From positions 2,432,001 through 2,496,000 of the forward strand of contig OY730476.1 of NCBI GenBank assembly GCA_963422735.1: a stretch of DNA of 64,000 bases, written 5' to 3'. Under the pieces are notes generated by a model. That model made no database searches and was not told the origin of the DNA. It was given only the letters and a program-made list of their open reading frames with translations. The position numbers and the translations under genes were made by a program. The number at the start of each line of letters is the position of its first letter. Position 1 is the first letter of the stretch. This stretch comes from Candidatus Latescibacterota bacterium. Its GTDB lineage: Bacteria > Latescibacterota > UBA2968 > UBA8231. Shown piece by piece: positions 3,073 to 24,550 of the stretch.

Positions 3073-4980
3073 ATGAAGACGTTTTTAGCCAATATTTGCC
3101 TCGCAGTAGCTTTCGCCTTGCTGCCTACCCACTCGGCATTCGCCCAGGGTGCCATAGGCGGCGAGGCGAATGAAATAACCGAGAGCCGGATGCCTACGGT
3201 GCTAACGATCGAAGTCGAGGACATGAACAGCAACAGCTTCCCTGTGGATATTCCCTTTACTATGTCGGGATCTCCCGCCACCGTCTATCTGGCTGTTTAC
3301 ACGAACTTGGGGGATGCCGATCTCCCGGGTCTGACGGTGGAGGGCGATTTCAACTGGCATACTTATCAGGAAGTGAACTACGCTCTGTGGGTTTCCCCGG
3401 GCTCTCGCTTTGAGCCGGGTTCGCATTCAATCCGGTGGGATGGAAACGATATGAACGGCAATCAGGCCGATCCCAATGCCAGCTATCGGTTCTTTATCGT
3501 CGGCCTTGACGACCAAGCACCTATCAACATGGTGGGCTATGCCAATGAGCGACACACGGCTGAGTCGTGCTTGGCCCGTGATCAGAACGGCGATCTCTTC
3601 ATTGTGACCGGTGGTAGCACACAGCGGCTGACGGCGGATGGGCCGCGCCATTTGTTCCTCACTCGCGTCGGCACTAACTGGCTGGAGACGCCAGGCGCGT
3701 GGCAGGCCATTGACGTCGAGAACGAACTCATGACTGTTTTCCACGAGGACGACGTTATGCCGGCGGAGTGGCAGGGTGGCGGCAACGGCAAACAGTATGG
3801 TAGTCTGCCCGGCGACTTCTACGGCGATAGCTGGGACGGAACGGTCTATGGCTCCATCAAGTTCAACGTCGATCCGGCGAACGGTCAAGTCACCTTGGAC
3901 CGGAACTTCGGCACTGAGGGGGACGGCCGCATGAAGTTCGAGCCCTTCAGCGATGGGAATCTAGCTGTGGGATCGACTGGCATAGATGTATGGAAAGGAC
4001 GGCTCTACTACCCCATCTACGACCGGGGTAGAGACGCGCCCGCCCACGCCAATGTCGGGATTCAGGATGCGGCTACCGGCGAGGTCATTGACGTGCTCGA
4101 CCTGTCCGACTGGCTGGTAGTGGATGTGGGCGAGGGCAATCAGGCCTTCAGCCCCCACGATATCTGGGTGGACGATACCGGTATCTACATCGTGGGCTAT
4201 GCTGGCTCCCAGCATGTCAAGATCACCCTTGACGGTGAGTTGAAGTGGCTCAACGACAACGGCGATGGCTTTGCGGATCGGCGGAACGCGGACACCGGAG
4301 AATTCGACTATGGTGCCTTCTCCATCACGCCGTGGAACACATCTGGTTCGGGCAGCAAGGACGGCTGGGGCTTTGCCTTTATCCCGCTTTTAGGCAGTAC
4401 CTCCAGCACCGTGGATATCTTAGGACCGGATGGTACGGGTATCCTCCACATGGTGGCCACCCACGCTCCGGCCCACTGGCCGCAATGGGTAGAGTCGATT
4501 GAAGAGGACGGTCCGTACGACGGGATTTACTGGGATATCGGCTCGCGGCGCGGCGGTGGGACAGACCCCTGGGATGTGCCCGACTTCACGGGATTTCCGT
4601 CTCGTCAGGCGATCCACTTTCCCTTTGACACCAAGACCGCGCTCATCAATCCCGATACCGATGCCACGGTCGTAGAAGCGGTAGAGGGGGCGGGTCTGCC
4701 CGGTAAATATGCGCTCGATAACGCCTTTCCCAATCCGGCCAACCCGCAGACCACTATCCGCTTCAGCATCCCCCGGGATGAGAACGCGATGCTGCAGATA
4801 TACAATTTGTCGGGTCAGCAGGTGAAGACTCTGCATCGAGGTTGGGTCGAGGCCGGCGCGTATCAGAGCGCATGGGATGGGACGGATGATTCTGGCGCGA
4901 GCATGGCCAGTGGCGTGTATCTCTACACCCTGCAGGCCGGTAGCTTCTTTGAGGCTAAGAAGCTGACTTTGCTCAAGTAA
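3073..4980 (+). CDS. Secreted protein with N-terminal FlgD-Ig-like domain, beta-rich core and C-terminal FlgD/T9SS type-A-like sorting domain
   Basis: Signal peptide ending AFA-Q; PGSHSIRWDGNDMNG; C-terminus YALDNAFPNPANPQTTIRFSIP...WDGTDDSG..MASGVYLYTL...KKLTLLK. Confidence 0.85.
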   Translation: MKTFLANICLAVAFALLPTHSAFAQGAIGGEANEITESRMPTVLTIEVEDMNSNSFPVDIPFTMSGSPATVYLAVYTNLGDADLPGLTVEGDFNWHTYQEVNYALWVSPGSRFEPGSHSIRWDGNDMNGNQADPNASYRFFIVGLDDQAPINMVGYANERHTAESCLARDQNGDLFIVTGGSTQRLTADGPRHLFLTRVGTNWLETPGAWQAIDVENELMTVFHEDDVMPAEWQGGGNGKQYGSLPGDFYGDSWDGTVYGSIKFNVDPANGQVTLDRNFGTEGDGRMKFEPFSDGNLAVGSTGIDVWKGRLYYPIYDRGRDAPAHANVGIQDAATGEVIDVLDLSDWLVVDVGEGNQAFSPHDIWVDDTGIYIVGYAGSQHVKITLDGELKWLNDNGDGFADRRNADTGEFDYGAFSITPWNTSGSGSKDGWGFAFIPLLGSTSSTVDILGPDGTGILHMVATHAPAHWPQWVESIEEDGPYDGIYWDIGSRRGGGTDPWDVPDFTGFPSRQAIHFPFDTKTALINPDTDATVVEAVEGAGLPGKYALDNAFPNPANPQTTIRFSIPRDENAMLQIYNLSGQQVKTLHRGWVEAGAYQSAWDGTDDSGASMASGVYLYTLQAGSFFEAKKLTLLK

Positions 4981-5005
4981 TATTCCAGGTCATATTGCTA
5001 CAGAT

Positions 5006-5060
5006 GGACAAGGTGGGAGATTGGCTGTTGTTTGGACTATTCACTCACCTTGTCCTCTTT
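5006..5060 (+). terminator. Stem-loop after the first operon gene (terminator or mRNA stabiliser)
   Basis: GGACAAGGTG...CACCTTGTCC followed by TCTTT. Confidence 0.45.
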
Positions 5061-5123
5061 CACACCCCATCTCAACTGTCTAGGCACAGCTAAGTCACCC
5101 CCTTACAGGAAGAAGGCTTTCTC

Positions 5124-7268
5124 TTGGGAAGACGAAGGATTTTGCTGTCCCTGACGCTCCTCCTGCTCGGCTTTGGTAGCAGCCGACTCTGTGGCCAAAC
5201 TCTCCGCATAGGCCACTGGGAACAGACAACTTACTACCGTCATACCTTCCAGGCTCAACAGGCTCACTCGGGGATCGTGAGGATTACAGCTATCGGGGAT
5301 TATACCCTTTATTTTAATGGTAGCGAAGTGGAATCCGACAGCGACTGGAGGACTGCCGAAGAAGTCTCTGTGGACCTGCGGACAGGGGCCAACGATATAG
5401 CGGTGGCGGTGAACCACTTCGAGGCTGTAGCCGGCGCCGGCCTGATTCTCAGCCTTCAGGCTGGTCCTCAGATCGCAGTGAGTAATTTCACGGACGAAAC
5501 ATCTCTCTGGTTCTGGTCGGACGCCGCGCAAGTCGGTACCGACTGGACAACCGAGAATGTGCAAAATTCGTGGAAGAGGGTGCAGGCTGGAACGATCAGC
5601 AGAGGGCGAGTGCAAGGAGGCATATTTCATCCGCTCGCCGAGGTGATCGTCGGCTATCCGAATGCGGTGAATCTGGGCAGTTCGAGCACGGGCCACATCG
5701 TCCTCGCCGACCAGCGTGGCCAGAATATAGCCTTGGGACTAAATGCTACTGAAGTGGGGGTGACGGATGGCCGGATCGGCACTCCGGTATGGTCTTTGCC
5801 CCAGGGACTGAGTGCGCTGAATCGCTTGGTCGATATCACGCTGCCGGACCTGACGCGGATCAACCGGGTTCGGGTTATAACTAAGCCTCCCGCTGGCAAC
5901 GAGACGTATGCTGGCAACTCGCTGTTGGGGTATTCTGTGCAGATCAGCGAGGACCAGTCTCGCTGGATTGAGATGGGTGGAATCAACGACATAGAGGACT
6001 TTATCTTCACAGAGGTGCTCTTTGATCCAGTGTTGGCACGCTACGTCCGGATCCAAGTGACCCAAGCAGAGGTAGGCCAAGATCCGGCTAAGGTGACGGA
6101 GATTCAGATATACGGCGTTGATTTTGTCTCTGAAGGAGGCTATATCTCGCCGCCGCTAGACTTTGGCGATGCTGCGGTGAAGAATTTCGGGCGCGTACGC
6201 TGGTCGGCGCATGTGCCTGCAGCGACGGAGTTGAGCTTGCAGTTCAGCACGGGAGATTCGCCGGATACGACCGATGCTAGCTGGAGTGCCTGGAGTCGGG
6301 AATTCGAGGGCTCAGACATCTTCGTTCCCTCTCCCGAACCGCGGCGCTATCTGCGCTACCGGGTCAATCTCCGCACCGAAGACTTGGAAGTTACTCCGGC
6401 TTTGGACAGTCTTGAGATCGACTTCAGCACGAAGGGAATCGCCGCCAGGGATGCACGTGGTTCAGTGGTCCCCAACGAGGCCCCGATGGGAGTGGAGATT
6501 CCCTTCGTCTATCGGGCTATCTTAGAGTTGGCCGAGGGTGACGTTGTGGAGAAAATTCGGATCCGCCTGCCCAGCTTTCCCACTAGAGTGGATTCGATTC
6601 AACTGCTCGGCCAGGATATCCCTGTGCTGCAGTTTCCCACCGGTAGCGGGGGTATTGACGCGGGAGGACGCGTGTTGCGGATTACGCCTCGGAGCGTCAA
6701 CGACCTAGACATTCTCTTCGAACCGCCGCTGAGTTCGATGGACGGAACGGATATCCCTTTCCAAATTCTAATCCACTCTGCTCTCTACACCGACACGCAT
6801 GAATTTCGCGCCGCCCTGTTCAGTCCTAGTTCTGAAAATCCACAGAACATCCGCGAGAATTCGGTGGACGGCGCTTCTTGGAAGGTCGTAGTAACTGATG
6901 TGGTGACGAAGGATCTGCTCAATGTCAGAGCCCACCCTCGCGTCTTCACACCCAACGGAGATGGCGTAAACGACTTCACCGTGATCGAGTTCACACTGAC
7001 CAAAGTGGCCACACCGCGCCGCGTGGATGTGGAGATATTCGACCTGTCCGGGCGCAGAGTAAGCCGGCTCTACACGGAACGGCTAATTGGCGGCCGCTAT
7101 GTTCATCCTCTCTTGAATAAAGAAGAAGCGCGCTTTGTTCCGGGCTTCTGGGATGGCATGGATGAGTCCGGCGAATTGGTGCCCCCCGGAATTTATTTTT
7201 TTATGGTTAAAGCGAATCTGGATAGCGGGGATGAAACGGCCGCTGGGGTCGTCCATCTCGTCTACTAG
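5124..7268 (+). CDS. Secreted multidomain protein: galactose-binding-like domain, F5/8-type C (discoidin) domain, C-terminal FlgD/CHU_C (T9SS type-B-like) domain
   Basis: Signal peptide; YSVQISEDQSRW...ARYVRIQV...VTEIQIYG; HPRVFTPNGDGVNDF...WDGMDESGELVPPGIY. Confidence 0.8.
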   Translation: MGRRRILLSLTLLLLGFGSSRLCGQTLRIGHWEQTTYYRHTFQAQQAHSGIVRITAIGDYTLYFNGSEVESDSDWRTAEEVSVDLRTGANDIAVAVNHFEAVAGAGLILSLQAGPQIAVSNFTDETSLWFWSDAAQVGTDWTTENVQNSWKRVQAGTISRGRVQGGIFHPLAEVIVGYPNAVNLGSSSTGHIVLADQRGQNIALGLNATEVGVTDGRIGTPVWSLPQGLSALNRLVDITLPDLTRINRVRVITKPPAGNETYAGNSLLGYSVQISEDQSRWIEMGGINDIEDFIFTEVLFDPVLARYVRIQVTQAEVGQDPAKVTEIQIYGVDFVSEGGYISPPLDFGDAAVKNFGRVRWSAHVPAATELSLQFSTGDSPDTTDASWSAWSREFEGSDIFVPSPEPRRYLRYRVNLRTEDLEVTPALDSLEIDFSTKGIAARDARGSVVPNEAPMGVEIPFVYRAILELAEGDVVEKIRIRLPSFPTRVDSIQLLGQDIPVLQFPTGSGGIDAGGRVLRITPRSVNDLDILFEPPLSSMDGTDIPFQILIHSALYTDTHEFRAALFSPSSENPQNIRENSVDGASWKVVVTDVVTKDLLNVRAHPRVFTPNGDGVNDFTVIEFTLTKVATPRRVDVEIFDLSGRRVSRLYTERLIGGRYVHPLLNKEEARFVPGFWDGMDESGELVPPGIYFFMVKANLDSGDETAAGVVHLVY

Positions 7269-7310
7269 CTCGACCGGTGCAAGAAACAGGGAGATGGTCT
7301 GGCACTGATT

Positions 7311-10064
7311 GTGTCAAACCACAAGCCCAAGGCAATGCGGAGAAGCGTAGTGATAGAGAGGATTAGAGGAGAATTATCACTCGCTATATTCGCCGCGTTT
7401 CTCCTATACTTCTGTAGGGCCGAGGCTCAGCTAATCTCCCGCGACTACTACCCTCTGTGGCAAAAAGAGCATTACGAGAATCTCGGACAGTACGGCTACC
7501 GAGACTTTGATGAGCAGGACATTGAACGGCGGGTCTACGACCCCTTTGGGGTCTACTTAATTGACGGGGTTCCAGTGTTCACGCTCGAGGAGAGCCGTAC
7601 CGAGGGACCAGAGCGGGGCAGCGCTATCTTCAAGAGTCCGATCTACCCACGGATTTTCCGCAACTTGATGCTCGGCATGGATTCTTACCGGGGATGGTCG
7701 GCTGCTATCATGGTAGGCGATGCCATCCCCACCCGCTTTTCACCTTTGACTCTGAATTTGAGCCGTCTCAACGGCCTTCGCTTCGATGCCTCTACGCGCA
7801 AGACCAGTTTCAGCATTATTGCCTCGCGGATCTCGGATCCGGTACTCTTGGCGACGGGGTTGTCCCAGAGCGGCGTTCAGGTAAATCCAAAAGGCGTGTT
7901 CGGCAGACCTTCGTTCGGAACCTACCTGATAGGCGGCCATTGGGAGACGACTCTGGGGAGTGTGCTCAAACTGGGTTCCACCTATGTCAATGTTCACAAC
8001 TTCGACAGTATCGCGAGCAGGAAGGAGGGATCGCTCAAGGGAGTCGTTCCCTTTTCCGCTCTCGACGAGGGAAAGTCAGTATTCGTCTTAGTTAGCGATG
8101 ATTCCCATTGGGATGGAGAAGGGCCACGCGTCTATCGCATGGAGATGTACGTTGGCGGCGAGAGGCGGGACGATATCGAGCCGATGATTCGAATGATCCA
8201 CTCGGTGCCCGAACTCATAGGTGCTGCCAACAGGACTATCGGGCGGGGAACCAGTGAGATCGCGCTCAATCGGGCGGACAGACCTTCGTGGCTAATCCAG
8301 AATTATCAGATGGAGGAAATAGTCAGGGAGGGGTACACGCGCAGCGGTCAGCTCAGCAATTTTACCAGCGGCGGGCTGTTCTTTAAGGAAGGAGATCCCG
8401 TAAGCCACGATGGCGTTCCTTTTTTACAAGTAGATGGGACGGACATTCTGGTCTACCGCTTTGAGATTCCTCCGGGTTCCGAGAAGGTGCATTTCAGGGC
8501 GCTAGCTGCAGGGGACTATGTAGTGGATGTGGCCAGTGCCCTAGACTGGATCGGCACCGATGTCCAATGGAGGGATTGGCACACCGCAAAGCGGGCCGAG
8601 AACAATGCCAAGGACCGGGGCAATATGGGGTGGATCACGTTCCGCTATGGATTCCCGACGGGGATGATTCTCTACGGAATGAACTTCGAGGCCAAAGTCT
8701 TGGGCCTCCGCGCTTGGGGTGAATTCGTCCGGAATACCTCCTATTTCCAGTTCCCGTCGGGAGAAGGCAAGCGTCTTTCCACGAATGAGGACGCCTATTT
8801 CCTCAATGTGTTTCGGGACATGGGCCGTTGGGACATGGGGTTCGAGTATGTGAGTTTGCCTTCGGGCTTTGCCACTTCTTTTCAAGCCCTAATGCAGAAC
8901 CCCCGGCAAAATGTCATCGCCCCCTTTGACTTGGTGGACGACAACGACGATCGGGATGAATGGCCCGACCGCTGGGAGCAGGAGCGCGATTTTGCCTCGC
9001 TTAACATGACGCCGGCCCCGGGAGCAGGTCTGGGATTCGGGGTTTTTCCCGGCCTAGACGTGGATAACGATGGAGTTCGGGACAACACTTGGTACAACGG
9101 AGCGGACAAGGTCCTAACCTATTACGACCAGCCCTTTGTGTTCGGCGATGATTTCAATAATAACGGCCTAGTGGATGGGTGGGAGAACGACAATCGGTCG
9201 GATTATCCCTACGATCACGATAGTCGCGGCGGTCATTTCTTCATCACCTGGCGTCCCTTTACTTCCCAGCAGCATGCATGGATGCGAGCCGGCCGCTACG
9301 ATATGCGCCAGCCGGCCAGCGGTGGCCGGAATTTGACCACCTATGTGAAGACTAATTATCCGAGGCGCTGGCCGGGGCTCGGCCAGCTGCAGATCGGCTA
9401 CTACGGCAAGAGAGTACGGGACGATATTAGCAATGATCTGTACCAATTCGTCGGCAGCGGCAGGTACCAAGTATTGCCGGATCGGCTGCTGCTGCGGAAC
9501 AGTCTGCAGAATACCTTCGTGGTGGGGACTCATGTCAACACAGACATGCTGCCGCACTTAAACATCTACAATGATATTATCGTGGAAATCAACGACCAGC
9601 GAGAATTGACCGATGGGGATTTCTCTCAGCCGGATAGCCGCATAACGACTATAGGGTATGTCGCTAGGGTCGATTACACTTGGTATATAGGCGATAGCTT
9701 CGGCTTCGGGCCGATGTTTAAGGCAGTCTTCAACCGGACCAAGGCCGAACTATTTAGTTTACAGAGACACGCGTATACACTGACGCCGATCATAAGGGGA
9801 GATTACCATTTGGCACCGCACACAGTGCTGCGAGGGGGGATCCTCGGATGGCCACTGCGGGAGAAGCACCGAGACTTGGTGCGGCCTTTTTTGGACCGAG
9901 ATTCTTGGTACTACATCTTGGTTCTGGAGAATCTCGGCAATTACCGGGGAGTTGATGTGAGTACCAACATTGGGTACCAGAAGAATTTTGACCGCTATCC
10001 TTCCTCTTCACACCGCGTGGATGTCGGTGCCGTCCGCTATTTCATCCGCTTGCGCATCGGATAG
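7311..10064 (+). CDS. Uncharacterised large exported protein, paralogue A (probable outer-membrane beta-barrel with Asp-rich insert)
   Basis: 917-aa ORF, signal-like N-terminus, DDNDDRDEWPD and FPGLDVDNDG motifs, alternating terminal strand YFIRLRIG. Confidence 0.8.
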   Translation: MSNHKPKAMRRSVVIERIRGELSLAIFAAFLLYFCRAEAQLISRDYYPLWQKEHYENLGQYGYRDFDEQDIERRVYDPFGVYLIDGVPVFTLEESRTEGPERGSAIFKSPIYPRIFRNLMLGMDSYRGWSAAIMVGDAIPTRFSPLTLNLSRLNGLRFDASTRKTSFSIIASRISDPVLLATGLSQSGVQVNPKGVFGRPSFGTYLIGGHWETTLGSVLKLGSTYVNVHNFDSIASRKEGSLKGVVPFSALDEGKSVFVLVSDDSHWDGEGPRVYRMEMYVGGERRDDIEPMIRMIHSVPELIGAANRTIGRGTSEIALNRADRPSWLIQNYQMEEIVREGYTRSGQLSNFTSGGLFFKEGDPVSHDGVPFLQVDGTDILVYRFEIPPGSEKVHFRALAAGDYVVDVASALDWIGTDVQWRDWHTAKRAENNAKDRGNMGWITFRYGFPTGMILYGMNFEAKVLGLRAWGEFVRNTSYFQFPSGEGKRLSTNEDAYFLNVFRDMGRWDMGFEYVSLPSGFATSFQALMQNPRQNVIAPFDLVDDNDDRDEWPDRWEQERDFASLNMTPAPGAGLGFGVFPGLDVDNDGVRDNTWYNGADKVLTYYDQPFVFGDDFNNNGLVDGWENDNRSDYPYDHDSRGGHFFITWRPFTSQQHAWMRAGRYDMRQPASGGRNLTTYVKTNYPRRWPGLGQLQIGYYGKRVRDDISNDLYQFVGSGRYQVLPDRLLLRNSLQNTFVVGTHVNTDMLPHLNIYNDIIVEINDQRELTDGDFSQPDSRITTIGYVARVDYTWYIGDSFGFGPMFKAVFNRTKAELFSLQRHAYTLTPIIRGDYHLAPHTVLRGGILGWPLREKHRDLVRPFLDRDSWYYILVLENLGNYRGVDVSTNIGYQKNFDRYPSSSHRVDVGAVRYFIRLRIG

Positions 10065-10071
10065 AGTTGCT

Positions 10072-12903
10072 ATGAGCAAGACGAGGGCCTCTTATTTTTT
10101 CTTTTTAGGTGCTTTGGTGCTGATGTGGGTTAGGGAGAGTAGCGCCCATGTACGGGGATCGGGGCTTTTTCTTTACCGGCCGGGTGAGGGGTATATCACC
10201 CATTCCCGGGAACCCTACAAACATTGGCCTCGCTCTTATCTGGTCCGTCCCGAAGATCTCGTCTTCGACGAGTTGGGCAATTTTGTCGTCGAGGGCATCG
10301 AAGTGTTTCGGTTGCGCGAGTCGCGCACCCTTGACCCTGAGCCGGGAAGTGTCATCGACAAGAGCCGCTATTTCAAAGAGTACCTCAGTCGGCTTTCAGT
10401 CTCCTCTGATTCCTACGGAAAAATTAACACTTCTCTGATCATCGGCGACAATATCCGCACCAAATTTACCTCGCTGACCCTAGACTTGGCGGCCATGAAC
10501 GGAATTCGCTGGGACATGAACCTGCCCCAATCCGATTTTACCCTGATCTCCTCGCGTCTGGACTATCCCATTTTTGATGTGAACGCGAACGCCGATAACA
10601 AGCAACACAACTTTGGTGCGCTCGGCACTCGGCCACCCTTATTTGCCACCTATCTGTTGGGATCGCACTTAGAAACCGAGATTGGAGCGTTGAAGCTGGG
10701 ACTAATGTGGGTCAATCAGTATCGCGTCAACAGTCTGATGGAATGGGGTGAGTGGGATTTCAGGGGAGCGATGCCGGGGAATATCCAGCCGGTTGATTAT
10801 CTGGTGGTGAAGTTTGCGGATGGGTCGATAGACGATCGCGGAGGGCCCCGAGTATACGACTTCGAGGTCTATATCAACGGCCAACTACGACCGGAATTGA
10901 AGGTGTATCCCGATGCTGTTTCAGCGGCGGGAATTGACGACACCCAGCGCATCGTCGTGACTCGGCATCACCTTGAGGACATTGATCCGGCCTTTCCAAA
11001 CGGCGACAAGGAATTTCTTAGGGAATTGGGACGGGAAATACCGCCCTATGTAGAATTCGTCAACGGCTTGCTGCCAGAGGACTTCCCAAGAGAAAAGGGC
11101 TATCTGGAAGCACACGGCAAAGAGTTCCTTCTTTACTGGGTGCCGTTGAGCGAGGAGGATATCGACGATGTGCGGTTCAAGGTCAAGGTGGGCAACGACT
11201 ATCGGATCAGCCTGTCCGAGGTCTACGCCAACGACCCCACTAGGGCGAGGAGGGATCGAAGTCCGCGGGACCGGAACAGGGCCCTTTACTTCTACGACGT
11301 CGCCCATGCTCTAGGCAAGGTACAGGATCTCTCCAATCTGAGGGTAGTGGAGTTCCGGCACGGCCGACAGACTGGGAGAATGCTGGGCGGAATGCACGCG
11401 GATTTTGAGGTGGAGGATCTCTTTGTGAAGGCGGAGTACGATCTCAGCTACGATTTTCGTCAGTTTCCGACACCCAAAGGGAAGCGGAGCGATCGCCGAG
11501 GCGCAGCGTACTTCATCAATGCCGTCGTGGATCGAGACGGTGTGAAATTCGGGGGGGAATTATTCCGTATAGACCCGGAATACGGCACTTCCCTGCAGGT
11601 CCAGGACCCTAGCTATCAGAGCTTTGTCACCTTGCCCTTTGCACCCTTAGACAGCGAGATTGACGGCGGATTGAAAGGCATTGATGGGTTCAACCAGAGT
11701 TCGCTCAATGGAACCCTGACCTTCGATTCAGTGGAGGACAACGACGACAAGGATCGCTTTCCAGATGAGCATTATATCAGGAGCCGGAGGGATCTGGATG
11801 GGATTTTCCCGGGGCTAGATATCGATCAGGATGGCCGGCCAGAGACCAATATAAACAACAATGGTATCCCCGACTATCTAGAACCCTTTCTGCTCTTCGA
11901 CGTCAATCCCGAAGAGTACGATTACGGCGATGATTTGAACAACAACGGAGTTATCGACATCCGGGAGAACAATCCCAATGTGGACTACCCTTACAATAAG
12001 GATCTGGAAGGGTTTCACCTATTTGCGTCTTTCCGCCCTTGGAAAGGAACGACGCTCAAGGTGGGGCACTATAACACGAAGCAGATCGCAGCCGGGGGCA
12101 AGAACAGAGTCTTTTACACCAAGGTGGAACACACCCGCTATCTTCCCTTTTGGGGTCGCCTTACCCTGCTTGACTTCGCCAAGAGAGTAGAGGACGACAT
12201 CCGGGATAACGTCTTTCAGTTTCCCCGCAATGCCACCTTTGAACTGCAGGAAGATATTAGTGGTCGGCTGACTGGTGCGGGGTTGACCATTGATCTGATA
12301 GAAGACCCTCTACGCATGAAGGATAGTTTCGTCAACACCTCCTATGCCGCCTTGGATTTTGACGGTACCAAACCCCTCAATATCCACCTCGATTTCAAGC
12401 ACGACTTCAATCATCAATTTGCCCAAGAAGGACGCAAGTCCAACCGCATCGTCAGGCTAACTTCTGTCGTCAAGGGAGAGTATCCCTTGGACCTGTCGGG
12501 TATGTTTCGGGATGTGAGAATCACCCCTCAAGTGAAGGTAATGGGACAGAAGTTGACCAATAATCGGTGGCAGGTTCCGGTACTTCACGAAATATTCTTC
12601 TATCCCATTCTGCGCCTAGACTGGGATATGACCTCCTTGACGAGCATTCGTATAGGAGCCCAAGGCTTTCCCTTTCTGCAGAGCCGTTCCCTCGACTTGG
12701 TCAATTCGAATAGGGACTTTGCGGGTGAGGACTATGTTTTCATACTCGCCAATACTTTTACTTATCAGGGGTACAGGGTGAACTTCAACATGGGCTATCA
12801 GATACAGAAGAGGGAATTCAATTCCTCCAGACAGGCCCTGAATAATGTGGATACGTCCATATTCTTTTTTCAGGCTTTGGTCGGACTCCGTCCGGTCATA
12901 TAG
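10072..12903 (+). CDS. Uncharacterised large exported protein, paralogue B
   Basis: Signal peptide after ATG 10072; motifs collinear with 7311 and 12913; C-terminus IFFFQALVGL. Confidence 0.8.
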   Translation: MSKTRASYFFFLGALVLMWVRESSAHVRGSGLFLYRPGEGYITHSREPYKHWPRSYLVRPEDLVFDELGNFVVEGIEVFRLRESRTLDPEPGSVIDKSRYFKEYLSRLSVSSDSYGKINTSLIIGDNIRTKFTSLTLDLAAMNGIRWDMNLPQSDFTLISSRLDYPIFDVNANADNKQHNFGALGTRPPLFATYLLGSHLETEIGALKLGLMWVNQYRVNSLMEWGEWDFRGAMPGNIQPVDYLVVKFADGSIDDRGGPRVYDFEVYINGQLRPELKVYPDAVSAAGIDDTQRIVVTRHHLEDIDPAFPNGDKEFLRELGREIPPYVEFVNGLLPEDFPREKGYLEAHGKEFLLYWVPLSEEDIDDVRFKVKVGNDYRISLSEVYANDPTRARRDRSPRDRNRALYFYDVAHALGKVQDLSNLRVVEFRHGRQTGRMLGGMHADFEVEDLFVKAEYDLSYDFRQFPTPKGKRSDRRGAAYFINAVVDRDGVKFGGELFRIDPEYGTSLQVQDPSYQSFVTLPFAPLDSEIDGGLKGIDGFNQSSLNGTLTFDSVEDNDDKDRFPDEHYIRSRRDLDGIFPGLDIDQDGRPETNINNNGIPDYLEPFLLFDVNPEEYDYGDDLNNNGVIDIRENNPNVDYPYNKDLEGFHLFASFRPWKGTTLKVGHYNTKQIAAGGKNRVFYTKVEHTRYLPFWGRLTLLDFAKRVEDDIRDNVFQFPRNATFELQEDISGRLTGAGLTIDLIEDPLRMKDSFVNTSYAALDFDGTKPLNIHLDFKHDFNHQFAQEGRKSNRIVRLTSVVKGEYPLDLSGMFRDVRITPQVKVMGQKLTNNRWQVPVLHEIFFYPILRLDWDMTSLTSIRIGAQGFPFLQSRSLDLVNSNRDFAGEDYVFILANTFTYQGYRVNFNMGYQIQKREFNSSRQALNNVDTSIFFFQALVGLRPVI

Positions 12904-12912
12904 GAAGAGGCC

Positions 12913-15900
12913 GTGTTAAACGATTTGCACAAAAGATTTTCCAAGCCTTGCGGGATTTCTCGTTGCCTGCCCTTTAGCGGACAAGCGCCGCTTCTCGAAA
13001 GCTGGGTCTCGCTCGCTGTCCTCGTCTCTGCGAGTTCGTCCATCGGTGCCGAGGAGGACGAGTTTTCGGAGAGTTGGGGACCACGCACAGGAATCGATAT
13101 TCCGGAAGTGCCGCGAATCCAGCCCGACCGGATGTTTCTGAGGAGAGATTGGGAACTCTACGAGAATTATGCCCACAAAGAAAAGAGGTATAAAAACTAT
13201 TCGACCATCCTTTCTCCCTACCGCGATCCCAAGCAGTATTTCTACGGGCCGCTAGGGAATCGCTTAGTCTATGGGATCCCCGGCTATGACTGGGTGGAGA
13301 CCACAGGTCTGGGGCCCCAAAGACGGGGATCGTCGATACTGAGGGTGACAGGCGATCTCTACAACTATCCCGGGCGCGAACAGTCTACCTATCGGCGCTA
13401 TTTCGAGGATGTGCTGACCGTCTCGGAGCAGACCAACAGGTGGTGGGCGGGCCTGACCATTGCTCAGGAGTTACGGGGGCGCTTCACGCCGCTGACTCTG
13501 AAAGTCAACGCCTTTCGCGGCTTCAGAATTGACGTGGGTACAAAACACGACGATCTCTCGGCGCTCTTCATGAACTGGAACACTGTGCGAATGGGGGCCT
13601 TTCACTTTGAGCGGCGGGTCGGCCTGCTGAATCTGGGTCTGACTTATGTCAACCAGCACGAGAGCTTCAGCGATGCGTTCGGCCACACCTTCTCCCGCAA
13701 AGGGGTGCTGCGCCACAACCAGCCATACCCAGAAATTATCGCTATAAAATTTTCGGATGATTCACCCAAGGACGACCGGGGTGGTCCCTACATCGTCGAG
13801 TTGAACATCTTGGTCAACGGAATTCTCCGCAAGGACATCGTCCCGGATATTGTCGAACACATTGACGGCGTCACCGAGTCCTCGGTGGGCCGATTCGGCG
13901 CACAGGGATTAGTGCGCAACACCTATGCCGAGCTGTCAGCGGCCTTTACTTCCTCGGTCCCGACAGAGCCCACCTATATGCAGTACCGCATCAATGAAGC
14001 TCCGCTCTACATGGACTACCTCTTCTTCAAAGATCTAAGGTTGAATGATCCGATAGATCCTGAACGTCAGTTTACGACGTACGTATGGAGAGGCGTAGAA
14101 TTTCCCATTGAAGAGCCATGGCACCTAGCGGTGAATCGGCAGCCGGAAGCATCAACGAGCAGAGGCTACTACCGCGACAACGCCAATGCGATATTGGGAG
14201 AGCGATTTACTGAAGGCGAGGTGCGTGCCATCCTGATTCGCAACAACGCCCTCAACAACATCTATAGACCTCTAGAACAGTCTTTCCGGTGGCGCACCAA
14301 CGAAACAGGTCCTATAGAGGTCTCTGGCGACGATTTCGTGGTCTATTACTTCAACTTGGCAGGAGAGGGCTATGTTCAATCCGTTTCCTTCGAAGCCGTA
14401 GTCGCCAACGATTACAAGATTGAGGTGGGAACTGTGGCGAGGAATAGAAGGGTGGACCTCGATGATCCGTACGCGCCGATTGAAAGCCCCTACACACAGC
14501 GCTATGGCCAGCCGACGCTCTTTCGCGTAGTGGAACGCGCTCCGGGGAATGTCCAAGACCGGTCGAACGCGAAGCGTATTTCATTCGACATCGGCACACA
14601 GACCGGGATGGAGATATTGGGAGCCAATTTCAGCACCAATATCTTCGGGCTAAAAATTGACGGGGAGTACGCGAGGAGCCTGCACTACTTCCAGTACCCC
14701 GATGGTGTAGTCGGCCCCGATCCCAGCACGGCCATGCGCTTCGGCAAGCGCTTCGACCAGAAAGGTGAAGCGTATTATCTGGTGGTGCGTAAAGAGCACG
14801 AGCGCTTCGACTGGGGAGGCGAATTCTTCCATATGGGACCGAATTATAGCACGGAATTCGTAGTGTTGGGGACGCCGGCTGTACCCCATTTCAACAGTAC
14901 CATGCGCTTGATGATGGTGGACGACAATGACGACAACGACCGCTTTCCCGACTCGTGGTTCCAGCAGTACATCGCCGGCTTTGTCAACGAGGGAGTAGAT
15001 GCGGATGGTATTTTCCCCGGCAAGGATGAGGATGGAGATGGGCGACCGGACACAAATAAAAATGGGAATAGGCGGCCGGATTATCTGGAACCCTTCCTGA
15101 TGTACGATGTGGAATCGGACGACTATATCTATGATTTGGATCTGAACAACAACAACAGACCGGATGGCCGAGAGGACGATCCCGAACCCGATTACCCCTA
15201 TCCCGAGGATCTGGAAGGTTACCATCTGTTCGGGAAGTACTGGCTGCGGCGGGATCTGAGCTTCTTTCTGGGGCACCTCGATGCCCACCAGCAGGATAGG
15301 GCGGGTAAAAATTTGATGAATTATGGCCGTCTCAACTGGAAGGCAAAGCAACCGGGACTGGGTAGGCTGGTGGTGGAGAATACGCTGAAGCGGGTTTGGG
15401 ACACTGTTCCAGATCGCGTCTTGATCTCTTCGGACTTCGGTAGGAGTCCCTTCGGCAAGACACATTTGGCCGGATTCGGCTACCAACAACAGTTCGACCT
15501 GATATTAATAGAGGACAATCTGAACTACAAGAATAGCTGGGCCAATAGATTCTACTTGGAGACACTTTTGAGTCCACTCAAAGACCTGAGAATGTATCAT
15601 AACTTCCGCTACGAATTCAACTGGCAGCAGCGGGGCCTTTTGGACGATGGGACCCATCAGCGCAAGAATGTGATTCGCTCTATGAGTTCGGTTCACCGCG
15701 TCGACTATACGTGGCGGAGGCACCGGAGTAAATTGGAGATCATCCCGGCGCTGAAACTGCTTTTCCTCAAGCGAACCCAAGACATCATCGACATACCTCT
15801 GGCCAATGAGACCACGGTCATTCCGTTGCTCAAAGCCAATTACTATGTGACGCCCCGAACTACCTTTCGCCTCGGTGCCCAAGGTTTTCCTTTCTGGAAC

Positions 15901-16119
15901 TATGGCGTCAAGGACCATGGCAACAATTGGAACAGTTTCGAGCAGAACGTGTACGTACTCATGATGACCAATAGTTCCGACTATTTCGGCTATGAGATTG
16001 TGGCCAATGCTGGTGTGACTTTCGATCGCCGAACTTACGATGATTCCTTCCGCAGTGCCGACAATACCGATGTCCTAGCTGTCTTTATACAGATCGTAGC
16101 AGGGGCACCGCGGTATTGA
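12913..16119 (+). CDS. Uncharacterised large exported protein, paralogue C
   Basis: 1068-aa ORF with the same motif order; C-terminus VFIQIVAGAPRY. Confidence 0.8.
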   Translation: MLNDLHKRFSKPCGISRCLPFSGQAPLLESWVSLAVLVSASSSIGAEEDEFSESWGPRTGIDIPEVPRIQPDRMFLRRDWELYENYAHKEKRYKNYSTILSPYRDPKQYFYGPLGNRLVYGIPGYDWVETTGLGPQRRGSSILRVTGDLYNYPGREQSTYRRYFEDVLTVSEQTNRWWAGLTIAQELRGRFTPLTLKVNAFRGFRIDVGTKHDDLSALFMNWNTVRMGAFHFERRVGLLNLGLTYVNQHESFSDAFGHTFSRKGVLRHNQPYPEIIAIKFSDDSPKDDRGGPYIVELNILVNGILRKDIVPDIVEHIDGVTESSVGRFGAQGLVRNTYAELSAAFTSSVPTEPTYMQYRINEAPLYMDYLFFKDLRLNDPIDPERQFTTYVWRGVEFPIEEPWHLAVNRQPEASTSRGYYRDNANAILGERFTEGEVRAILIRNNALNNIYRPLEQSFRWRTNETGPIEVSGDDFVVYYFNLAGEGYVQSVSFEAVVANDYKIEVGTVARNRRVDLDDPYAPIESPYTQRYGQPTLFRVVERAPGNVQDRSNAKRISFDIGTQTGMEILGANFSTNIFGLKIDGEYARSLHYFQYPDGVVGPDPSTAMRFGKRFDQKGEAYYLVVRKEHERFDWGGEFFHMGPNYSTEFVVLGTPAVPHFNSTMRLMMVDDNDDNDRFPDSWFQQYIAGFVNEGVDADGIFPGKDEDGDGRPDTNKNGNRRPDYLEPFLMYDVESDDYIYDLDLNNNNRPDGREDDPEPDYPYPEDLEGYHLFGKYWLRRDLSFFLGHLDAHQQDRAGKNLMNYGRLNWKAKQPGLGRLVVENTLKRVWDTVPDRVLISSDFGRSPFGKTHLAGFGYQQQFDLILIEDNLNYKNSWANRFYLETLLSPLKDLRMYHNFRYEFNWQQRGLLDDGTHQRKNVIRSMSSVHRVDYTWRRHRSKLEIIPALKLLFLKRTQDIIDIPLANETTVIPLLKANYYVTPRTTFRLGAQGFPFWNYGVKDHGNNWNSFEQNVYVLMMTNSSDYFGYEIVANAGVTFDRRTYDDSFRSADNTDVLAVFIQIVAGAPRY

Positions 16120-16163
16120 AGAGCGGGCGCACCCTCAAGCGAATCCAACAAAAGGTAATTGCG

Positions 16164-16715
16164 ATGAAGCATTTTATTTTGTTACTAGCGCTTCTCAGCT
16201 TGGTACCTCTCTCCTGGGCGCAAAGCGAAGACGATGTCTTTGCAACTAGGCAGATCGTCACTAAAAAGAAGGCGGTCGTCCTGTCAGCTCTCTTCCCAGG
16301 GCTGGGTCAACTCTCTACCGGCCAAAAGATAAAGGGAACGTTCATGCTGGTCGGCGAGATTGGCTCTCTGGCCGTGACGCTAATAGCAAACGAGAACTAT
16401 AATACCCGCCGCGACAAATTCCACCGACTGAAAGACGAATATGAAGTAATGGCGACTGGGAACAGCCGCTACGATCTTGCCCAGCAAAAGTGGGACGAGT
16501 TGTATAAAGCCAATGATGAGTTGGACGATCTGCATGTGATGCGCAGGGTTTTTGGTGTGGCAGCTATGGGGGTGTACATTTACAGCCTGACCGATATCCT
16601 CTTATCTGGTTCTCCCAAAGTATCTACTGTGACCCGATGGAACTTGAGAGCCATGCCGGGAATGGGGGATGTGCCGCCCAAGTTGGTGATGACGGGAAGT
16701 TTCTCAACCTTTTAG
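16164..16715 (+). CDS. DUF5683-like membrane/exported protein
   Basis: Signal peptide; KKAVVLSALFPGLGQL..GQKIKG; YIYSLTD. Confidence 0.65.
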   Translation: MKHFILLLALLSLVPLSWAQSEDDVFATRQIVTKKKAVVLSALFPGLGQLSTGQKIKGTFMLVGEIGSLAVTLIANENYNTRRDKFHRLKDEYEVMATGNSRYDLAQQKWDELYKANDELDDLHVMRRVFGVAAMGVYIYSLTDILLSGSPKVSTVTRWNLRAMPGMGDVPPKLVMTGSFSTF

Positions 16716-16728
16716 AGGGAGTTCGTTA

Positions 16729-17118
16729 ATGGGTAGAGCTTTGTGGCTACTTTTTTATGTGCTGCTGATTTTCGGCATCCTGCACTGCAGCAAAGATCAT
16801 AACTTGCCGTCCAAGTTTCACGAGAGTCAGATTGGGATCCCCCAAGACTTGGAAGCATCCTTTGAAGGGGACGATGTGATTCTGGGATGGAACATGAGCG
16901 ATACTGCGGCCGTCTTTTATTATATAGTCACGGTAACTGAAGGCACATCAGGGGTGGAGCGTCAATACACTACTCCTGGAGACAGGCAGTCCTATACGGT
17001 TGAATTTACCTCGATTGATTCTTTCTATACCTTCCAGGTCCAGGCTGTGGATAAAACCAACTTCGCCGGGCAGAAGTCGAATGTGGACACCGTGTTTATT
17101 TCTCAGAAGCGTTCTTAA
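16729..17118 (+). CDS. Lipoprotein with one fibronectin type III domain
   Basis: Lipobox-like ILHC; PQDLEAS...VILGW...Y.V...YTFQVQAVDK. Confidence 0.7.
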   Translation: MGRALWLLFYVLLIFGILHCSKDHNLPSKFHESQIGIPQDLEASFEGDDVILGWNMSDTAAVFYYIVTVTEGTSGVERQYTTPGDRQSYTVEFTSIDSFYTFQVQAVDKTNFAGQKSNVDTVFISQKRS

Positions 17119-17363: not shown

Positions 17364-18614
17364 GTGCGAAAATCTACTCCAGATCGTTTTAGGGCTCCAT
17401 CGGACGCGATAGCTCTAAAGAGGCTCTATCGAGATAACCGTAGAATATCCTACTCTGCGTACGCTCTAGCATTACTCATAATGGCCTCTACCTTCGCCTA
17501 CCTAGTGGGACTAAAAGACGAAAAGCCCGTGCCCAAGCCCCTCGCAACAGAGTTCATAATTCGCAAGCCAATGGCCAAGAAGCCCTTCCGTATGAGGAAG
17601 GCCTTGGTCCAAAAGAGAGTGATGACCCGAAAGCTAGCTGCCTCGAAGCCAAAACTGACCCGTACGCCCCCGCGTCCGGTGCGGCGGATAGATGTATTGG
17701 GCAATGTAGCTGTCTTCGATCGTGGAATCGATGCGGGGACAAGCGTAGGGACCGGCACTATCACGCCTCAGATGCCTTCTATGCAGATCAGAAGTTCGAA
17801 AGATCCGGAGAAGCGGATCAGTATGCAGGAGGAGTTTCTGGATCTGAACGCGCTCGATACGGGTAAGTATCGAGGCATGGTAATCCAAGATCCGAATGAC
17901 AGGAGAAATATCAAGGGCTTCGTCTACTTGGCGTTAGCTTGGGCCAACGATCTCCAACCCGACGCTCCCCGCTCGGTTTCTAGGCTTGCAGATGGCATCA
18001 ACTCTTATACCGGTATCCAAGCCAAGGTGGTGGACCACATGTTCTTGGACTCTCCCGAACTGTTCAAGACGCCTTTTGTATATATCACGGACAAGGATGG
18101 TTTTGAACTGACGGCTAAAGAAATCGAAAATCTGGGATGGTACATGCGAACCGGAGGATTTGTTTTTGCCGACAATGACCGGCCGGATCTCAACTTTGGG
18201 CCAGCGGAAGCTTCGTTGAGAAAAATGTTCAGCTTGGCTTTGGGCAAAGATGGCAAGCTGCAGCGCATTTCTAACAGTCATCCGATTTACCACAGTTATT
18301 TCGACCTAGATGGTCCTCCGGTTGGGGGAGAATACCTGAGTGTCAGGGGTAATCCCGACATTTTCTACTACAACTCGGCCGAGCAGACAGATGTTTACTA
18401 TCAGCCCGATCAGGCACAATTCCTTGAAGGAGTTTTTTTGAATGGGCGCTTGGTGGCGGTTTACTCAGATATGGGCTATGGAAGCATCTGGCAGGATGAA
18501 TTCGAGAACGAGCCTCAGCTGAGGATGGGGGTTAATCTGGTGGTTTTCGCCCTCACCCAAGAGGGCTCTATCGCGCAGCAGCAGATTGATTTCTACACTG
18601 AACTTACCGAGTAA
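17364..18614 (+). CDS. DUF4159 domain protein with N-terminal TM anchor and basic Pro-rich linker
   Basis: LFKTPFVYI, LGWYMRTGGFVFAD, HPIYHSYFD, LEGVFLNGRLVAVYS, MGVNLVVFALT. Confidence 0.8.
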   Translation: MRKSTPDRFRAPSDAIALKRLYRDNRRISYSAYALALLIMASTFAYLVGLKDEKPVPKPLATEFIIRKPMAKKPFRMRKALVQKRVMTRKLAASKPKLTRTPPRPVRRIDVLGNVAVFDRGIDAGTSVGTGTITPQMPSMQIRSSKDPEKRISMQEEFLDLNALDTGKYRGMVIQDPNDRRNIKGFVYLALAWANDLQPDAPRSVSRLADGINSYTGIQAKVVDHMFLDSPELFKTPFVYITDKDGFELTAKEIENLGWYMRTGGFVFADNDRPDLNFGPAEASLRKMFSLALGKDGKLQRISNSHPIYHSYFDLDGPPVGGEYLSVRGNPDIFYYNSAEQTDVYYQPDQAQFLEGVFLNGRLVAVYSDMGYGSIWQDEFENEPQLRMGVNLVVFALTQEGSIAQQQIDFYTELTE

Positions 18615-23264: not shown

Positions 23265-23283
23265 ACGAAAGAGAGAATATCCG

Positions 23284-24516
23284 GTGTCGGGAAAGAGCAC
23301 AGCCCGGATCAAATGGGGCGGTATCGGAATGGTATGTGCTGGCCTCATAGGAGTGATCTCTTTGTACTTTTTCGCCTCTGTACCTTCGAGAGCTCAGTCC
23401 GCAGCCAAGGCGTTATTCGAGCAGGGAAACGCCCACTTGAACGTCGGTCAGGTGGGCCGTGCAATTGGCTATTATGAAAAGGCGATCGACCGCGATCCAG
23501 ATTTTGTCTATGCCTACAACGGTATGGGCATGGCCTACAGAGCCACGGGAGATTTGGCCCGGGCAGAGTATTACCTCCTGCAGGCTCTTTCCCTAGATCG
23601 GACCTTGGTGGATACCTACAACAATCTGGGGATCATCTACTCGGAGAGCGATAGGACGGAGAAGGCAGAAGCCATATACAGACAGGCTCTTGCTTTGGAC
23701 CCGAACTCCGCCGTGACGCACTACAATCTGGGTGCCTTCTATGTGCAGATCGGCCAGTACAGCAAGGCGGTGGAGGAGTATAGGAAGGCCGTCCAACTCA
23801 GACAGGACCTGTTCCAAGCTCACAACAACCTAGCACTCACCTACATCGCCTTGGGCAAGCCGAGGGAGGCTATAGAGGAGTACGAGATTTCGCTCCAGTT
23901 GAATCCTCATCAGAGCAGAGCCTACTACAATCTCGGACTCGTCTATGCTGAAGAAGGCCAGTATGAAGTGGCGCTCAACTATTACAGGAAGGCACTCCAG
24001 GGCAAGCGCGATAATCCCGATGTTTACTATCGCCTCGGCCTGATCTACGAGGGCATGCAACAGGAGGAGCAGGCGATGGCGCAGTACGAGAAGGTTCTCG
24101 CCCTCGCCCCATCCCACCGACAGTCCCATTACCGCATCGGGTTGCTTTTGGCTAGGGAAAATCGCTACAGAGAAGCTGTGATCTATTACGAGAAGGCGAT
24201 CTCCCTAGATCCCCAATACGCCGATGCCCGCTACAATTTGGGCAGGGCTTATATGAAATTGGGAATGAGAGCAGAATCCCAACGCGAGATGGACTTGTTC
24301 AAGAATATGAGCCAGTACAACAAAGAGAAAGAGCACATCGACAAAATTCTGCTCTACATGCCCGGCGATGCGGCGGCGCACTGGAAATTGGGACGCATAC
24401 ACGAAAAATACGGTCAGTACGAGAAGGCGATCGCCGCGTACAGGAAGGCTCTGACACTGCGACCGGGCTTTGAGGAAGCTCGGCGGGGACTCAAAGAAGC
24501 ACTGCAGAGCCTTTGA
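23284..24516 (+). CDS. Tetratricopeptide repeat protein
   Basis: About ten canonical TPRs (YNNLG, HYNLG, ALDP); N-terminal hydrophobic segment. Confidence 0.9.
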   Translation: MSGKSTARIKWGGIGMVCAGLIGVISLYFFASVPSRAQSAAKALFEQGNAHLNVGQVGRAIGYYEKAIDRDPDFVYAYNGMGMAYRATGDLARAEYYLLQALSLDRTLVDTYNNLGIIYSESDRTEKAEAIYRQALALDPNSAVTHYNLGAFYVQIGQYSKAVEEYRKAVQLRQDLFQAHNNLALTYIALGKPREAIEEYEISLQLNPHQSRAYYNLGLVYAEEGQYEVALNYYRKALQGKRDNPDVYYRLGLIYEGMQQEEQAMAQYEKVLALAPSHRQSHYRIGLLLARENRYREAVIYYEKAISLDPQYADARYNLGRAYMKLGMRAESQREMDLFKNMSQYNKEKEHIDKILLYMPGDAAAHWKLGRIHEKYGQYEKAIAAYRKALTLRPGFEEARRGLKEALQSL

Positions 24517-24550
24517 GTTCTTCAAAGGGTTTGAAAAGAGGAGAGGACTG

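Follow-up and report, generated by a model that had tools for sequence, protein, structure and literature searches.

Seven adjoining genes in the genome of an uncultured marine Candidatus Latescibacterota bacterium very probably encode the outer half, comprising outer membrane and surface, of an envelope machine of the Fibrobacterota-Chlorobiota-Bacteroidota (FCB) superphylum that is conserved yet undescribed and of which they represent one copy. They are found at 3073..17118 of a 64,000-nucleotide (nt) stretch of DNA (contig OY730476.1, positions 2,432,001 to 2,496,000), which is here called the window; its numbering is used unless the contig is named. The genome is a closed 4.95-Mb contig with a completeness of 95%. 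Genes 1 and 2 encode secreted proteins with a type IX secretion system (T9SS) C-terminal sorting domain (CTD), genes 3–5 three giant proteins that are predicted to be outer-membrane barrels, and genes 6 and 7 a small membrane protein and a small secreted protein. As to function, the machine may tentatively be regarded as a Ton-like apparatus for surface capture and uptake that displays lectins delivered by the T9SS, its manner of working being wholly inferred.

The seven genes and their products

The seven open reading frames (ORFs) are intact, are all open on the forward strand and follow each other with gaps of −4 to 143 nt, just as a preliminary description of the window had stated. N-terminal stretches resembling signal peptides, which were judged by eye without a predictor, are seen in genes 1–4, 6, and 7, in agreement with its statement that most of the genes have export signals. 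Gene 1 (3073..4980) encodes 635 amino acids (aa), of which the N-terminal 550 match no family in Pfam or NCBIfam; the protein scores 57.7 bits with FlgD_ig, 34.6 bits with TIGR04183 (cut-off 23) and 27.2 bits with Por_Secre_tail (PF18962; cut-off 27) and thus ends in a type A CTD. The lectin-like product of gene 2 (5124..7268; 714 aa) has an F5/8 type C (discoidin) domain (F5_F8_type_C, 28.3 versus 28.2 bits in Pfam) and a type B CTD according to CHU_C (PF13585; 35.1 versus 27 bits) but not according to TIGR04131 (21.1 versus 35 bits), so that the two type B models disagree. It contains the stretch TPNGDGxND, which we take to be typical of type B domains. That gene 1 ends in a T9SS sorting domain therefore holds, and gene 2 probably does so as well.

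Genes 3 (7311..10064; 917 aa), 4 (10072..12903; 943 aa), and 5 (12913..16119; 1068 aa) encode the three predicted giant barrels and are referred to as positions a, b, and c of the trio. A TTG at 9970 opens the longest ORF of gene 4, which in this form shares 95 nt with gene 3; a start at the ATG at 10072 is likelier because the protein then has a signal-peptide-like N-terminus and agrees in length with database homologues (943 aa, 93% identity). Gene 6 (16116..16715; 199 aa, likelier ATG start about 16 codons inside the ORF) encodes a small membrane protein with hydrophobic stretches, and its assignment to DUF5683 is confirmed (30.5 bits versus a Pfam gathering score of 26.7). Less can be said for the label "FN3 lipoprotein" given to gene 7 (16729..17118; 129 aa): the small, secreted protein is weakly FN3-like (fn3 20 versus 25 bits in Pfam, sub-threshold) and possibly a lipoprotein, the candidate lipobox cysteine being atypically preceded by histidine.

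A family of predicted giant barrels

The products of genes 3–5 are full-length collinear paralogues (27–31% identity; BLASTP E-values of 2e-80, 3e-73, and 5e-48) without a Pfam or NCBIfam family at E ≤ 0.01. Searches for an S-layer homology (SLH) or other Pfam domain, for an OmpA-like or other peptidoglycan-binding domain (Pfam, NCBIfam), and for the PorP/SprF and PorV/PorQ families (PF11751, TIGR03519, NF033709, NF033710) were likewise negative for the trio. A word-indexed search retrieved 41 relatives of gene 4, and all those with a name are a "hypothetical protein" from metagenome-assembled genomes (MAGs). In a protein atlas the 30 nearest clusters are without a Pfam family, the nearest named one being DUF6029 (0.89), which is merely a lead. 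A profile search of the sequences in the Protein Data Bank (PDB) with the family alignment gave only chance matches to PDZ domains (E about 0.7). The view that the trio consists of paralogues of no recognized family is thus upheld. It should be noted, however, that three distant relatives of gene 4 touch the Pfam family SlpA_C (PF21620; gathering score 35 bits) at 31–35 bits, distant relatives overall scoring 23.7–35.0 bits; genes 3–5 themselves do not match it at E ≤ 0.01, and the best score in the genome is 16.3 bits.

The AlphaFold2 model of the gene 4 product, which was built on the 41-row alignment, has a predicted local distance difference test score (pLDDT) of 76.4 and a predicted template modeling score (pTM) of 0.77. 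After 70 disordered N-terminal residues it shows about 26 long strands (counted from a DSSP list, so that the number may be off by one), which are interrupted by a β-rich inserted domain (residues about 221–423) and a poorly structured, aspartate-rich segment (about 512–644). The Asp and Asn positions of this segment are among the invariant or most conserved columns of the family alignment; they may resemble calcium-binding loops of the thrombospondin type. Foldseek searches of the PDB with the model found only outer-membrane barrels, in the order SlpA/SDBC of Deinococcus (8agd_A, E = 4.4e-9), MtrB (2.6e-8), LptD (about 2e-5), TonB-dependent transporters and SprA, with TM-scores that are low (0.1–0.24). 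With VIA, an independent structural aligner, all matches were again barrels (Z = 9–14), the widest being SlpA (7zgx_A; 424 residues, Z = 13.1, root mean square deviation 6.9). The model and these matches suggest that the three proteins are outer-membrane barrels, as had been proposed, and neither a soluble fold nor a characterized family emerged. A complex of the gene 3 barrel (residues 45–917) with the gene 2 CTD (residues 600–714), predicted with alignments, scored 0.00 against a mark of 0.32; the controls were not run, and the result carries no weight either way.

Conservation of the neighborhood

In a scan with one genome per species at least 524 stretches were found to encode a relative of gene 4, of which the best 70 loci were studied; they lean toward the close kin of gene 4 because they are the best matches to it. 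According to the record titles they come mostly from Latescibacterota and further from Gemmatimonadota, Zixibacteria, KSB1, Kryptoniota, Ignavibacteria, Bacteroidota, Zhuqueibacterota, and Handelsmanbacteria, to which a further homologue search added Marinimicrobia. The barrel family thus occurs under at least eight FCB-type phylum labels, and in the organism's own family it is present in all 63 genomes sampled.

Neighbors were counted by tblastn with the window proteins over those 60 of the 70 loci that are at least 15 kb long. A gene-2-like gene is present in 59 of the 60 and ends at most 1.5 kb upstream of a barrel gene in 54; DUF4159 genes, to which gene 8 belongs (see below), are found in 52, gene-1-like genes (covering at least 40% of gene 1) in 32, DUF5683 genes in 18 and FN3-like genes in 14. 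Three barrels occur in 35 loci, one barrel in 20, four in 4 and two in 1. The linkage of barrels to CTD proteins is therefore conserved in other genomes, and this was the survey on which the preliminary description had let its proposal depend.

The fuller order of the module was obtained with Pfam on nine representative loci. Those of Zixibacteria, KSB1, and Kryptoniota contain, in this order, a lectin with type B CTD, a PorP/PorV-like barrel of about 310 aa, one giant barrel, a tetratricopeptide repeat (TPR) protein of about 1040 aa, ExbB and one or two copies of DUF4159; in Zixibacteria and Kryptoniota ExbB is followed by ExbD. In other phyla the barrels of about 310 aa reach 28–67 bits with the PorP/SprF and PorV models, which is below the cut-offs. 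Two Bacteroidota-labelled loci have lectin/CTD-B, small barrel, giant barrel, TPR, and DUF4159 genes in a different order. In L070 (Bacteroidota-labelled) ExbB and two ExbD genes stand upstream of the lectin gene, an ORF of about 310 aa without a family, the giant barrel, the TPR gene and two DUF4159 genes. In L084 (Bacteroidota-labelled) there are in addition genes for DUF5683, for a product of 145 aa and for a protein with type A CTD, whereas the part of the locus that was examined contains neither ExbB nor ExbD.

Gene 8 and the extent of the module

From this comparison it follows that the boundary of 3073..17118 was drawn too narrowly: gene 8 (17364..18614), the giant TPR gene (24470..27838) and a gene for a 287-aa protein (27835..28698), all on the forward strand, are members of the same conserved module.

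Gene 8 encodes a TonB-shaped DUF4159 protein (92.8 bits), which in the model consists of a membrane helix (26–49), a disordered linker rich in Lys, Pro, and Arg (50–160) and an α/β DUF4159 head (165–416). The sole close structure of the head is the uncharacterized PDB entry 4i66 (E = 8e-14, TM-score 0.79), followed by weak matches to flavodoxin-, ThuA-, and GATase-like folds. Measured against the features of a TonB/TolA transducer, helix and linker are present, and the motif Ser-x3-His and a TonB_C or TolA_C head are absent. The Ser and His of this motif are the motor contact of TonB and TolA, as described in the account of Williams-Jones et al. (2025; PMC12204202). Among 33 aligned DUF4159 proteins a His in the membrane helix is found in 16, of which 12 have a Ser four residues earlier, and the 16 include all DUF4159 proteins that are encoded beside ExbB/ExbD in other phyla. 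Three of the four ExbB loci of the genome are in barrel clusters; the fourth adjoins a canonical TonB_C gene.

The giant TPR protein (1122 aa, of periplasmic type) is built of CpoB/YbgF-like units (TIGR02795, 238.7 bits over six stretches) and is not PorW/SprE by the NCBIfam cut-off (99.9 versus 250 bits). Its counterparts in the loci examined have 1038–1098 aa and are in most other loci encoded directly after the barrels, from which the gene is displaced in the window. The 287-aa protein belongs to an unnamed family, here called p250, which has no match in Pfam or NCBIfam and whose 30 nearest atlas clusters are without a Pfam family and named "hypothetical" or "lipoprotein"; tblastn finds 17 matches in the genome, and p250 is present in 11 of the 26 barrel neighborhoods described next.

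Barrel loci of the genome and their phylogeny

With a hidden Markov model of the family 34 full-length barrels (870–1068 aa) were found in 26 loci of the genome, namely 2 trios, 4 pairs, and 20 singles. At about 2.8 kb each, the 34 genes make up about 2% of the genome. In 18 of the 26 loci one to three gene-2-like genes directly precede a barrel gene, and in 21 if one small ORF is allowed in between. All 46 gene-2-like paralogues that were scanned have CHU_C or FlgD_ig, 19 have a discoidin-type domain and none has a catalytic domain; they share the last 400 or so residues of gene 2 and not merely its CTD.

The other neighbors were surveyed on 101 ORFs from 20 barrel loci. Among them are 12 TPR proteins, 5 FG-GAP/UnbV proteins and 4 full-length DUF6785+DUF6784 membrane proteins, and parts of ABC importers lie near barrels in 4 of the 20 loci. 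SurA-like proteins of 466–621 aa, with peptidyl-prolyl isomerase (PPIase) domains of the PPIC rotamase families, adjoin satellite barrels in 14 of these loci; they may be chaperones of the barrels or of T9SS cargo.

About 105 kb upstream, at contig positions 2316045–2342058, there is a second complete trio cluster with gene-2-like, three barrel, DUF5683, FN3-like, DUF4159, p250, and gene-1-like genes, with the TPR gene in place and with ExbB-ExbD-ExbD adjoining on the opposite strand. It is orthologous to the cluster type represented by L042 and not to the cluster of the window. One single-barrel locus with motor genes keeps the gene order found across phyla, including the PorP/PorV-like small barrel.

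A FastTree phylogeny of 51 barrels (SH-like support, midpoint root, three rows of deviant composition) has two deep clades with a support of 100. The first consists of 25 "satellite" barrels of the genome, the second of the cross-phylum singles, the motor-linked singles and the trios. Each of the trio positions a, b, and c forms a clade with a support of 100 and with members of four trio-cluster types, and in the tandem pairs, too, first members group with first and second with second. Judged from this tree, the triplication is ancient and each position has been kept, which is in keeping with a hetero-oligomer or with three roles that are fixed.

Type IX secretion in the genome

The preliminary description had recognized no T9SS gene. 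This holds for the window but not for the genome, for which it had proposed a search for sprA, porV, and porKLMN. SprA is encoded by a 2140-aa frame (611.5 bits) at contig positions 2394944–2400385, about 32 kb upstream of the window, and PorU (632.3 bits) at 2052354–2056707 together with an adjoining PorV-like gene (152.4 bits, below the cut-off of 250). About 50 CTD-bearing ORFs are scattered around the chromosome, dozens of them with a type B CTD, and there are about three PorP-like genes.

GldM (TIGR03517, PF12081), GldL (TIGR03513), and GldN (TIGR03523) had no match in the closed contig, where diverged forms may exist, and GldK found only sub-threshold matches of sulfatase fold (best 65.3 versus 350 bits). 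As a control, GldM_1st matched 29 of 121 genomes in a sample of a Bacteroidota-type phylum, and the GldL and GldN models matched all three of those tested; GldM_1st was found in none of 13 barrel-bearing genomes. The GldM and GldL equivalog models gave no match over 12 barrel-bearing genomes in a search in which the controls were silent too. On this sequence evidence the genome appears to hold a T9SS translocon whose usual motor and ring were not detected.

Proposed function and alternatives

We tentatively favor a machine for the capture and uptake of large substrates. The proteins of genes 1 and 2 would traverse the outer membrane via the ordinary SprA translocon of the genome, and the lectin-like protein with type B CTD would remain on the cell surface, docked to the giant barrels or next to them. 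The three position-specific paralogues would form a hetero-oligomeric outer-membrane unit, for which the DUF5683, the small FN3-like, the 287-aa and the 1122-aa TPR proteins may provide a periplasmic scaffold. The TonB-shaped DUF4159 protein would tie the unit to the inner membrane and, in cognate clusters, to an ExbB/ExbD proton motor. The outcome would be capture and energized passage of large substrates in the manner of SusC/SusD or TonB-dependent transporters, with unrelated parts. This reading is ranked first because of the TonB-shaped partner, the synteny with motor genes, an expansion that resembles that of SusC/D and involves partners of lectin type without catalytic domains, and the inner-membrane transporters encoded nearby. 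Indeed, inner-membrane transport genes recur near barrels, and the window itself has a DUF6785/DUF6784 gene and a sodium:solute symporter gene.

Quite a number of observations speak against uptake, however. Genes 3–5 have neither a Plug (PF07715) nor a TonB_dep_Rec domain, although the Plug model finds 16 other genes in the genome, and these 16 transporters are accompanied by a separate canonical ExbB/TonB set. The C-terminal residues of the three barrels are G, I, and Y and thus not uniformly aromatic. Both inserted domains of gene 4 follow an even-numbered strand and would, if the count is right, face the periplasm. The most frequent neighbor of the barrels is a double PPIase resembling SurA, with 14 ORFs spread over 14 of the 20 loci, and this fits protein folding or secretion at least as well. 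Glycoside hydrolases are absent from the 101 neighboring ORFs scanned, and no substrate is indicated. Finally, the cluster in the window is without an ExbB or ExbD gene and gene 8 has Ala...Met in place of Ser...His, which is why coupling to a motor is doubtful here or would have to occur in trans.

It is possible, though on the whole doubtful, that the module serves the T9SS instead, docking its cargo or energizing it. The giant barrels would then be outsized counterparts of PorP/SprF that hold the proteins with type B CTD, and the module would replace the PorL/M/K/N power train of Bacteroidia. The near-invariable linkage to genes with type B CTD is what would be expected, as is the PorP/PorV-like small barrel between cargo gene and giant barrel in other phyla and in the motor locus of the genome, given that PorP-like barrels serve as anchors for proteins with type B CTD, as reported by Gorasia et al. 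(2022; PMC9143113). The SurA-like PPIases flanking the barrels and the few PorP-like genes for so many CTD-B proteins point the same way. So does the presence of SprA, PorU, and a PorV-like gene, with GldM, GldL, and GldN undetected by models that match control genomes and GldM_1st missing from the barrel-bearing ones. On the other hand, the giant barrels fail the PorP/SprF and PorV models, PorL/M/N may be too diverged for theirs, 34 barrels are many for a power train, and the anticorrelation between barrels and GldM in one phylum sample (0 of 5 barrel-bearing versus 29 of 116 other genomes) is weak, too small in numbers and too confounded by kinship to count as a test. A more sweeping form of the idea, which we consider unlikely, is that in Latescibacterota and related FCB lineages with SprA, PorU, and a PorV-like gene and without detectable PorL/M/N the ExbB/ExbD, DUF4159, giant TPR, and giant barrel proteins would together be the missing power train and docking station of the T9SS, of independent evolutionary origin, and the 34 barrels would be cargo-specific landing pads for type-B-CTD proteins.

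Lower still must be rated an envelope-integrity system in which SlpA-like barrels act as structural anchors and ExbB/ExbD, DUF4159 as TolA analogue and the CpoB-like TPR protein form a Tol-Pal-like set. SlpA is the best structural match of the barrel, distant family members touch SlpA_C at 24–35 bits, and the TPR protein consists of units of the YbgF/CpoB type. A canonical TolB was not found in the genome (best 104.6 versus 343 bits), where the matches were sub-cut-off PD40 repeats only and are uninformative, and Bacteroidetes are listed as lacking identifiable tol-pal genes in the part of Williams-Jones et al. (PMC12204202) that deals with them. Yet nothing in the trio resembles an SLH, OmpA-like or other peptidoglycan-binding domain, SlpA_C stays at 16.3 bits in the genome, and a housekeeping tether would hardly account for T9SS cargo of the lectin type or for 26 loci in a genome.

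Improbable is also an adhesin-trafficking or gliding-type machine, analogous to the Agl-Glt core or to SprB/SprF, in which a motor would shift lectin-like adhesins of the outer membrane or put them under tension. The module shares the layout outlined for Agl-Glt by Luciano et al. (2011; PMC3169522), with a TolQ/R-type motor, a TPR protein of about 1100 aa (GltD has 1191 aa), more TPR proteins and a TonB-like transducer; SprB, an adhesin with type B CTD, binds SprF according to the account of Gorasia et al. (PMC9143113), and the only close structure of the DUF4159 head, 4i66, is myxobacterial. But GltE and GltC are far below their NCBIfam cut-offs (90.2 versus 225 bits in the 423-aa TPR protein of the window and 27.4 versus 450 bits in a relative), other gliding genes were not detected (GldL/M/N being absent from the model searches of the genome), and the core complex by itself is, as Luciano et al. 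state in their treatment of it, not likely to power motility. Least of all is the trio to be expected to be a non-canonical channel dedicated to secreting the two CTD proteins, as the preliminary description had suggested in view of the adjoining cargo and barrel genes and a window without T9SS genes: the trio need not export the cargo since SprA, PorU, and a PorV-like protein are encoded in the genome as the usual route for its roughly 50 scattered CTD proteins, and a channel specific to its cargo does not accord with the varying ratios of one to three barrels per one to three cargo genes.

Transcription and neighboring genes

Contigs from RNA libraries (four libraries of three studies; 92–99% alike) cover parts of genes 1–8, namely 26, 16, 13, and 7 of 30 bins in libraries X16, X15, X18, and X17, respectively, and one contig of 1623 nt spans the junction of genes 1 and 2. 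These are sequences of relatives in which carry-over of DNA is possible, and bins without cover have no meaning; the contigs thus hint only weakly at transcription of the cluster.

Between gene 8 and the TPR genes lies a gene for a sodium:solute symporter (18654..20150, forward strand; SSF 153.8 bits). Its membership in the module is doubtful; tblastn finds relatives in only 2 of the 70 related loci. A 423-aa TPR protein (23245–24516) is encoded directly upstream of the giant TPR gene and an FG-GAP/UnbV_ASPIC protein (29693–31441) downstream of it, and both kinds recur in satellite barrel loci. The full DUF6785+DUF6784 membrane protein (32796–34808; 670 aa) belongs to a family that recurs beside barrel loci throughout the genome. 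Farther downstream there are a 337-aa ankyrin-repeat protein followed by a 256-aa protein of the Fic/DOC family (39187–41131) and a 1169-aa fusion of ThuA, glucose/sorbosone dehydrogenase, PKD, and CBM6 domains (47969–51478).

The cluster is located in a stretch of lower GC content (0.50–0.56; compared over positions 2001–36000) than positions 1–2000 (0.64) and the region beyond 38 kb (0.58–0.65). A DUF6784-only ORF of 320 aa (47010–47972) and a DUF6785 fragment of 212 aa on the reverse strand (60092–60730) have the appearance of broken copies or of frameshifts in the assembly. The statement that pseudogenes fill the other parts of the window is not borne out beyond these two fragments in a limited look, in which 22 of 29 further ORFs matched Pfam at E ≤ 1e-5.

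Novelty and significance

The barrel family is widely conserved, and yet every named database entry that was met is a "hypothetical protein". For a barrel labelled Bacteroidota 120 homologues were listed, and all those among them with a name are from MAGs, none from a cultured carrier. No published account of the barrel family, of the function of DUF4159 or of a T9SS in Latescibacterota was found in a literature search that did not cover supplements. The system stands at the junction of three well-studied fields, namely force transduction of the TonB type, type IX secretion and the capture of nutrients at the outer membrane. Should it truly be an uptake machine, it would represent a third design of outer-membrane import beside porins and TonB-dependent transporters; if it truly powers or organizes the T9SS, it would show how this system works in lineages without the PorLMKN motor and ring. 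Either outcome would change the annotation of the genomes of Latescibacterota, Zixibacteria, KSB1, Bacteroidota of the Ignavibacteria type, and Marinimicrobia.

Comparison with known systems

The clusters described by Williams-Jones et al. (2025; PMC12204202) and the Agl-Glt system (Luciano et al., 2011; PMC3169522) resemble the module in that, as far as these accounts outline them, a TPR protein, a TolQ-like protein, two TolR-like proteins and a TonB-shaped protein with a non-TonB head are combined. The function of such clusters is given as unknown in the respective parts of both papers, in the case of the Agl-Glt core outside the myxobacteria. The head of the transducer of Williams-Jones et al. 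has, as presented there, a von Willebrand factor A fold, whereas that of the DUF4159 protein has a flavodoxin/ThuA-like fold matching 4i66, and giant barrels and T9SS cargo are not mentioned in the parts of the two papers that deal with these clusters.

With SlpA of Deinococcus and Thermus (PF21620; 8ae1, 7zgx, 8agd) the giant proteins share the very large outer-membrane β-barrel (best Foldseek E-values of 4.4e-9 to 6.4e-8). The SlpA barrel has 30 strands, compared with about 26 in the model of gene 4, and is tied to the cell wall by an N-terminal SLH domain and a coiled-coil stalk. The trio is without SLH domain, stalk or SlpA_C match, the TM-scores are 0.18–0.19, and the gene context is another one. 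Since SlpA is a trimer according to the title of PDB entry 8ae1, a hetero-trimer of the three paralogues is conceivable.

The pairs PorP-PG1035 and SprF-SprB, as described by Gorasia et al. (2022; PMC9143113), have in common with the module that the gene for the type B CTD protein is directly upstream of the barrel gene, and in other phyla the module itself includes a true PorP/PorV-like barrel. The giant barrels differ from these anchors in being three times larger and in matching neither PorP/SprF nor PorV models, and they are accompanied by motor, TPR, and DUF4159 proteins.

The differences from TonB-dependent transport and from SusC/SusD are that the barrels are without Plug and TonB_dep_Rec domains, that the transducer has a DUF4159 rather than a TonB_C head, and that at the surface T9SS cargo takes the place of SusD lipoproteins, SusD being absent from the genome in a model search. 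What the systems share is a linker-bearing transducer anchored in the inner membrane, with ExbB/ExbD in cognate clusters, and a multitude of paralogous outer-membrane barrel loci, each with surface binding proteins of its own.

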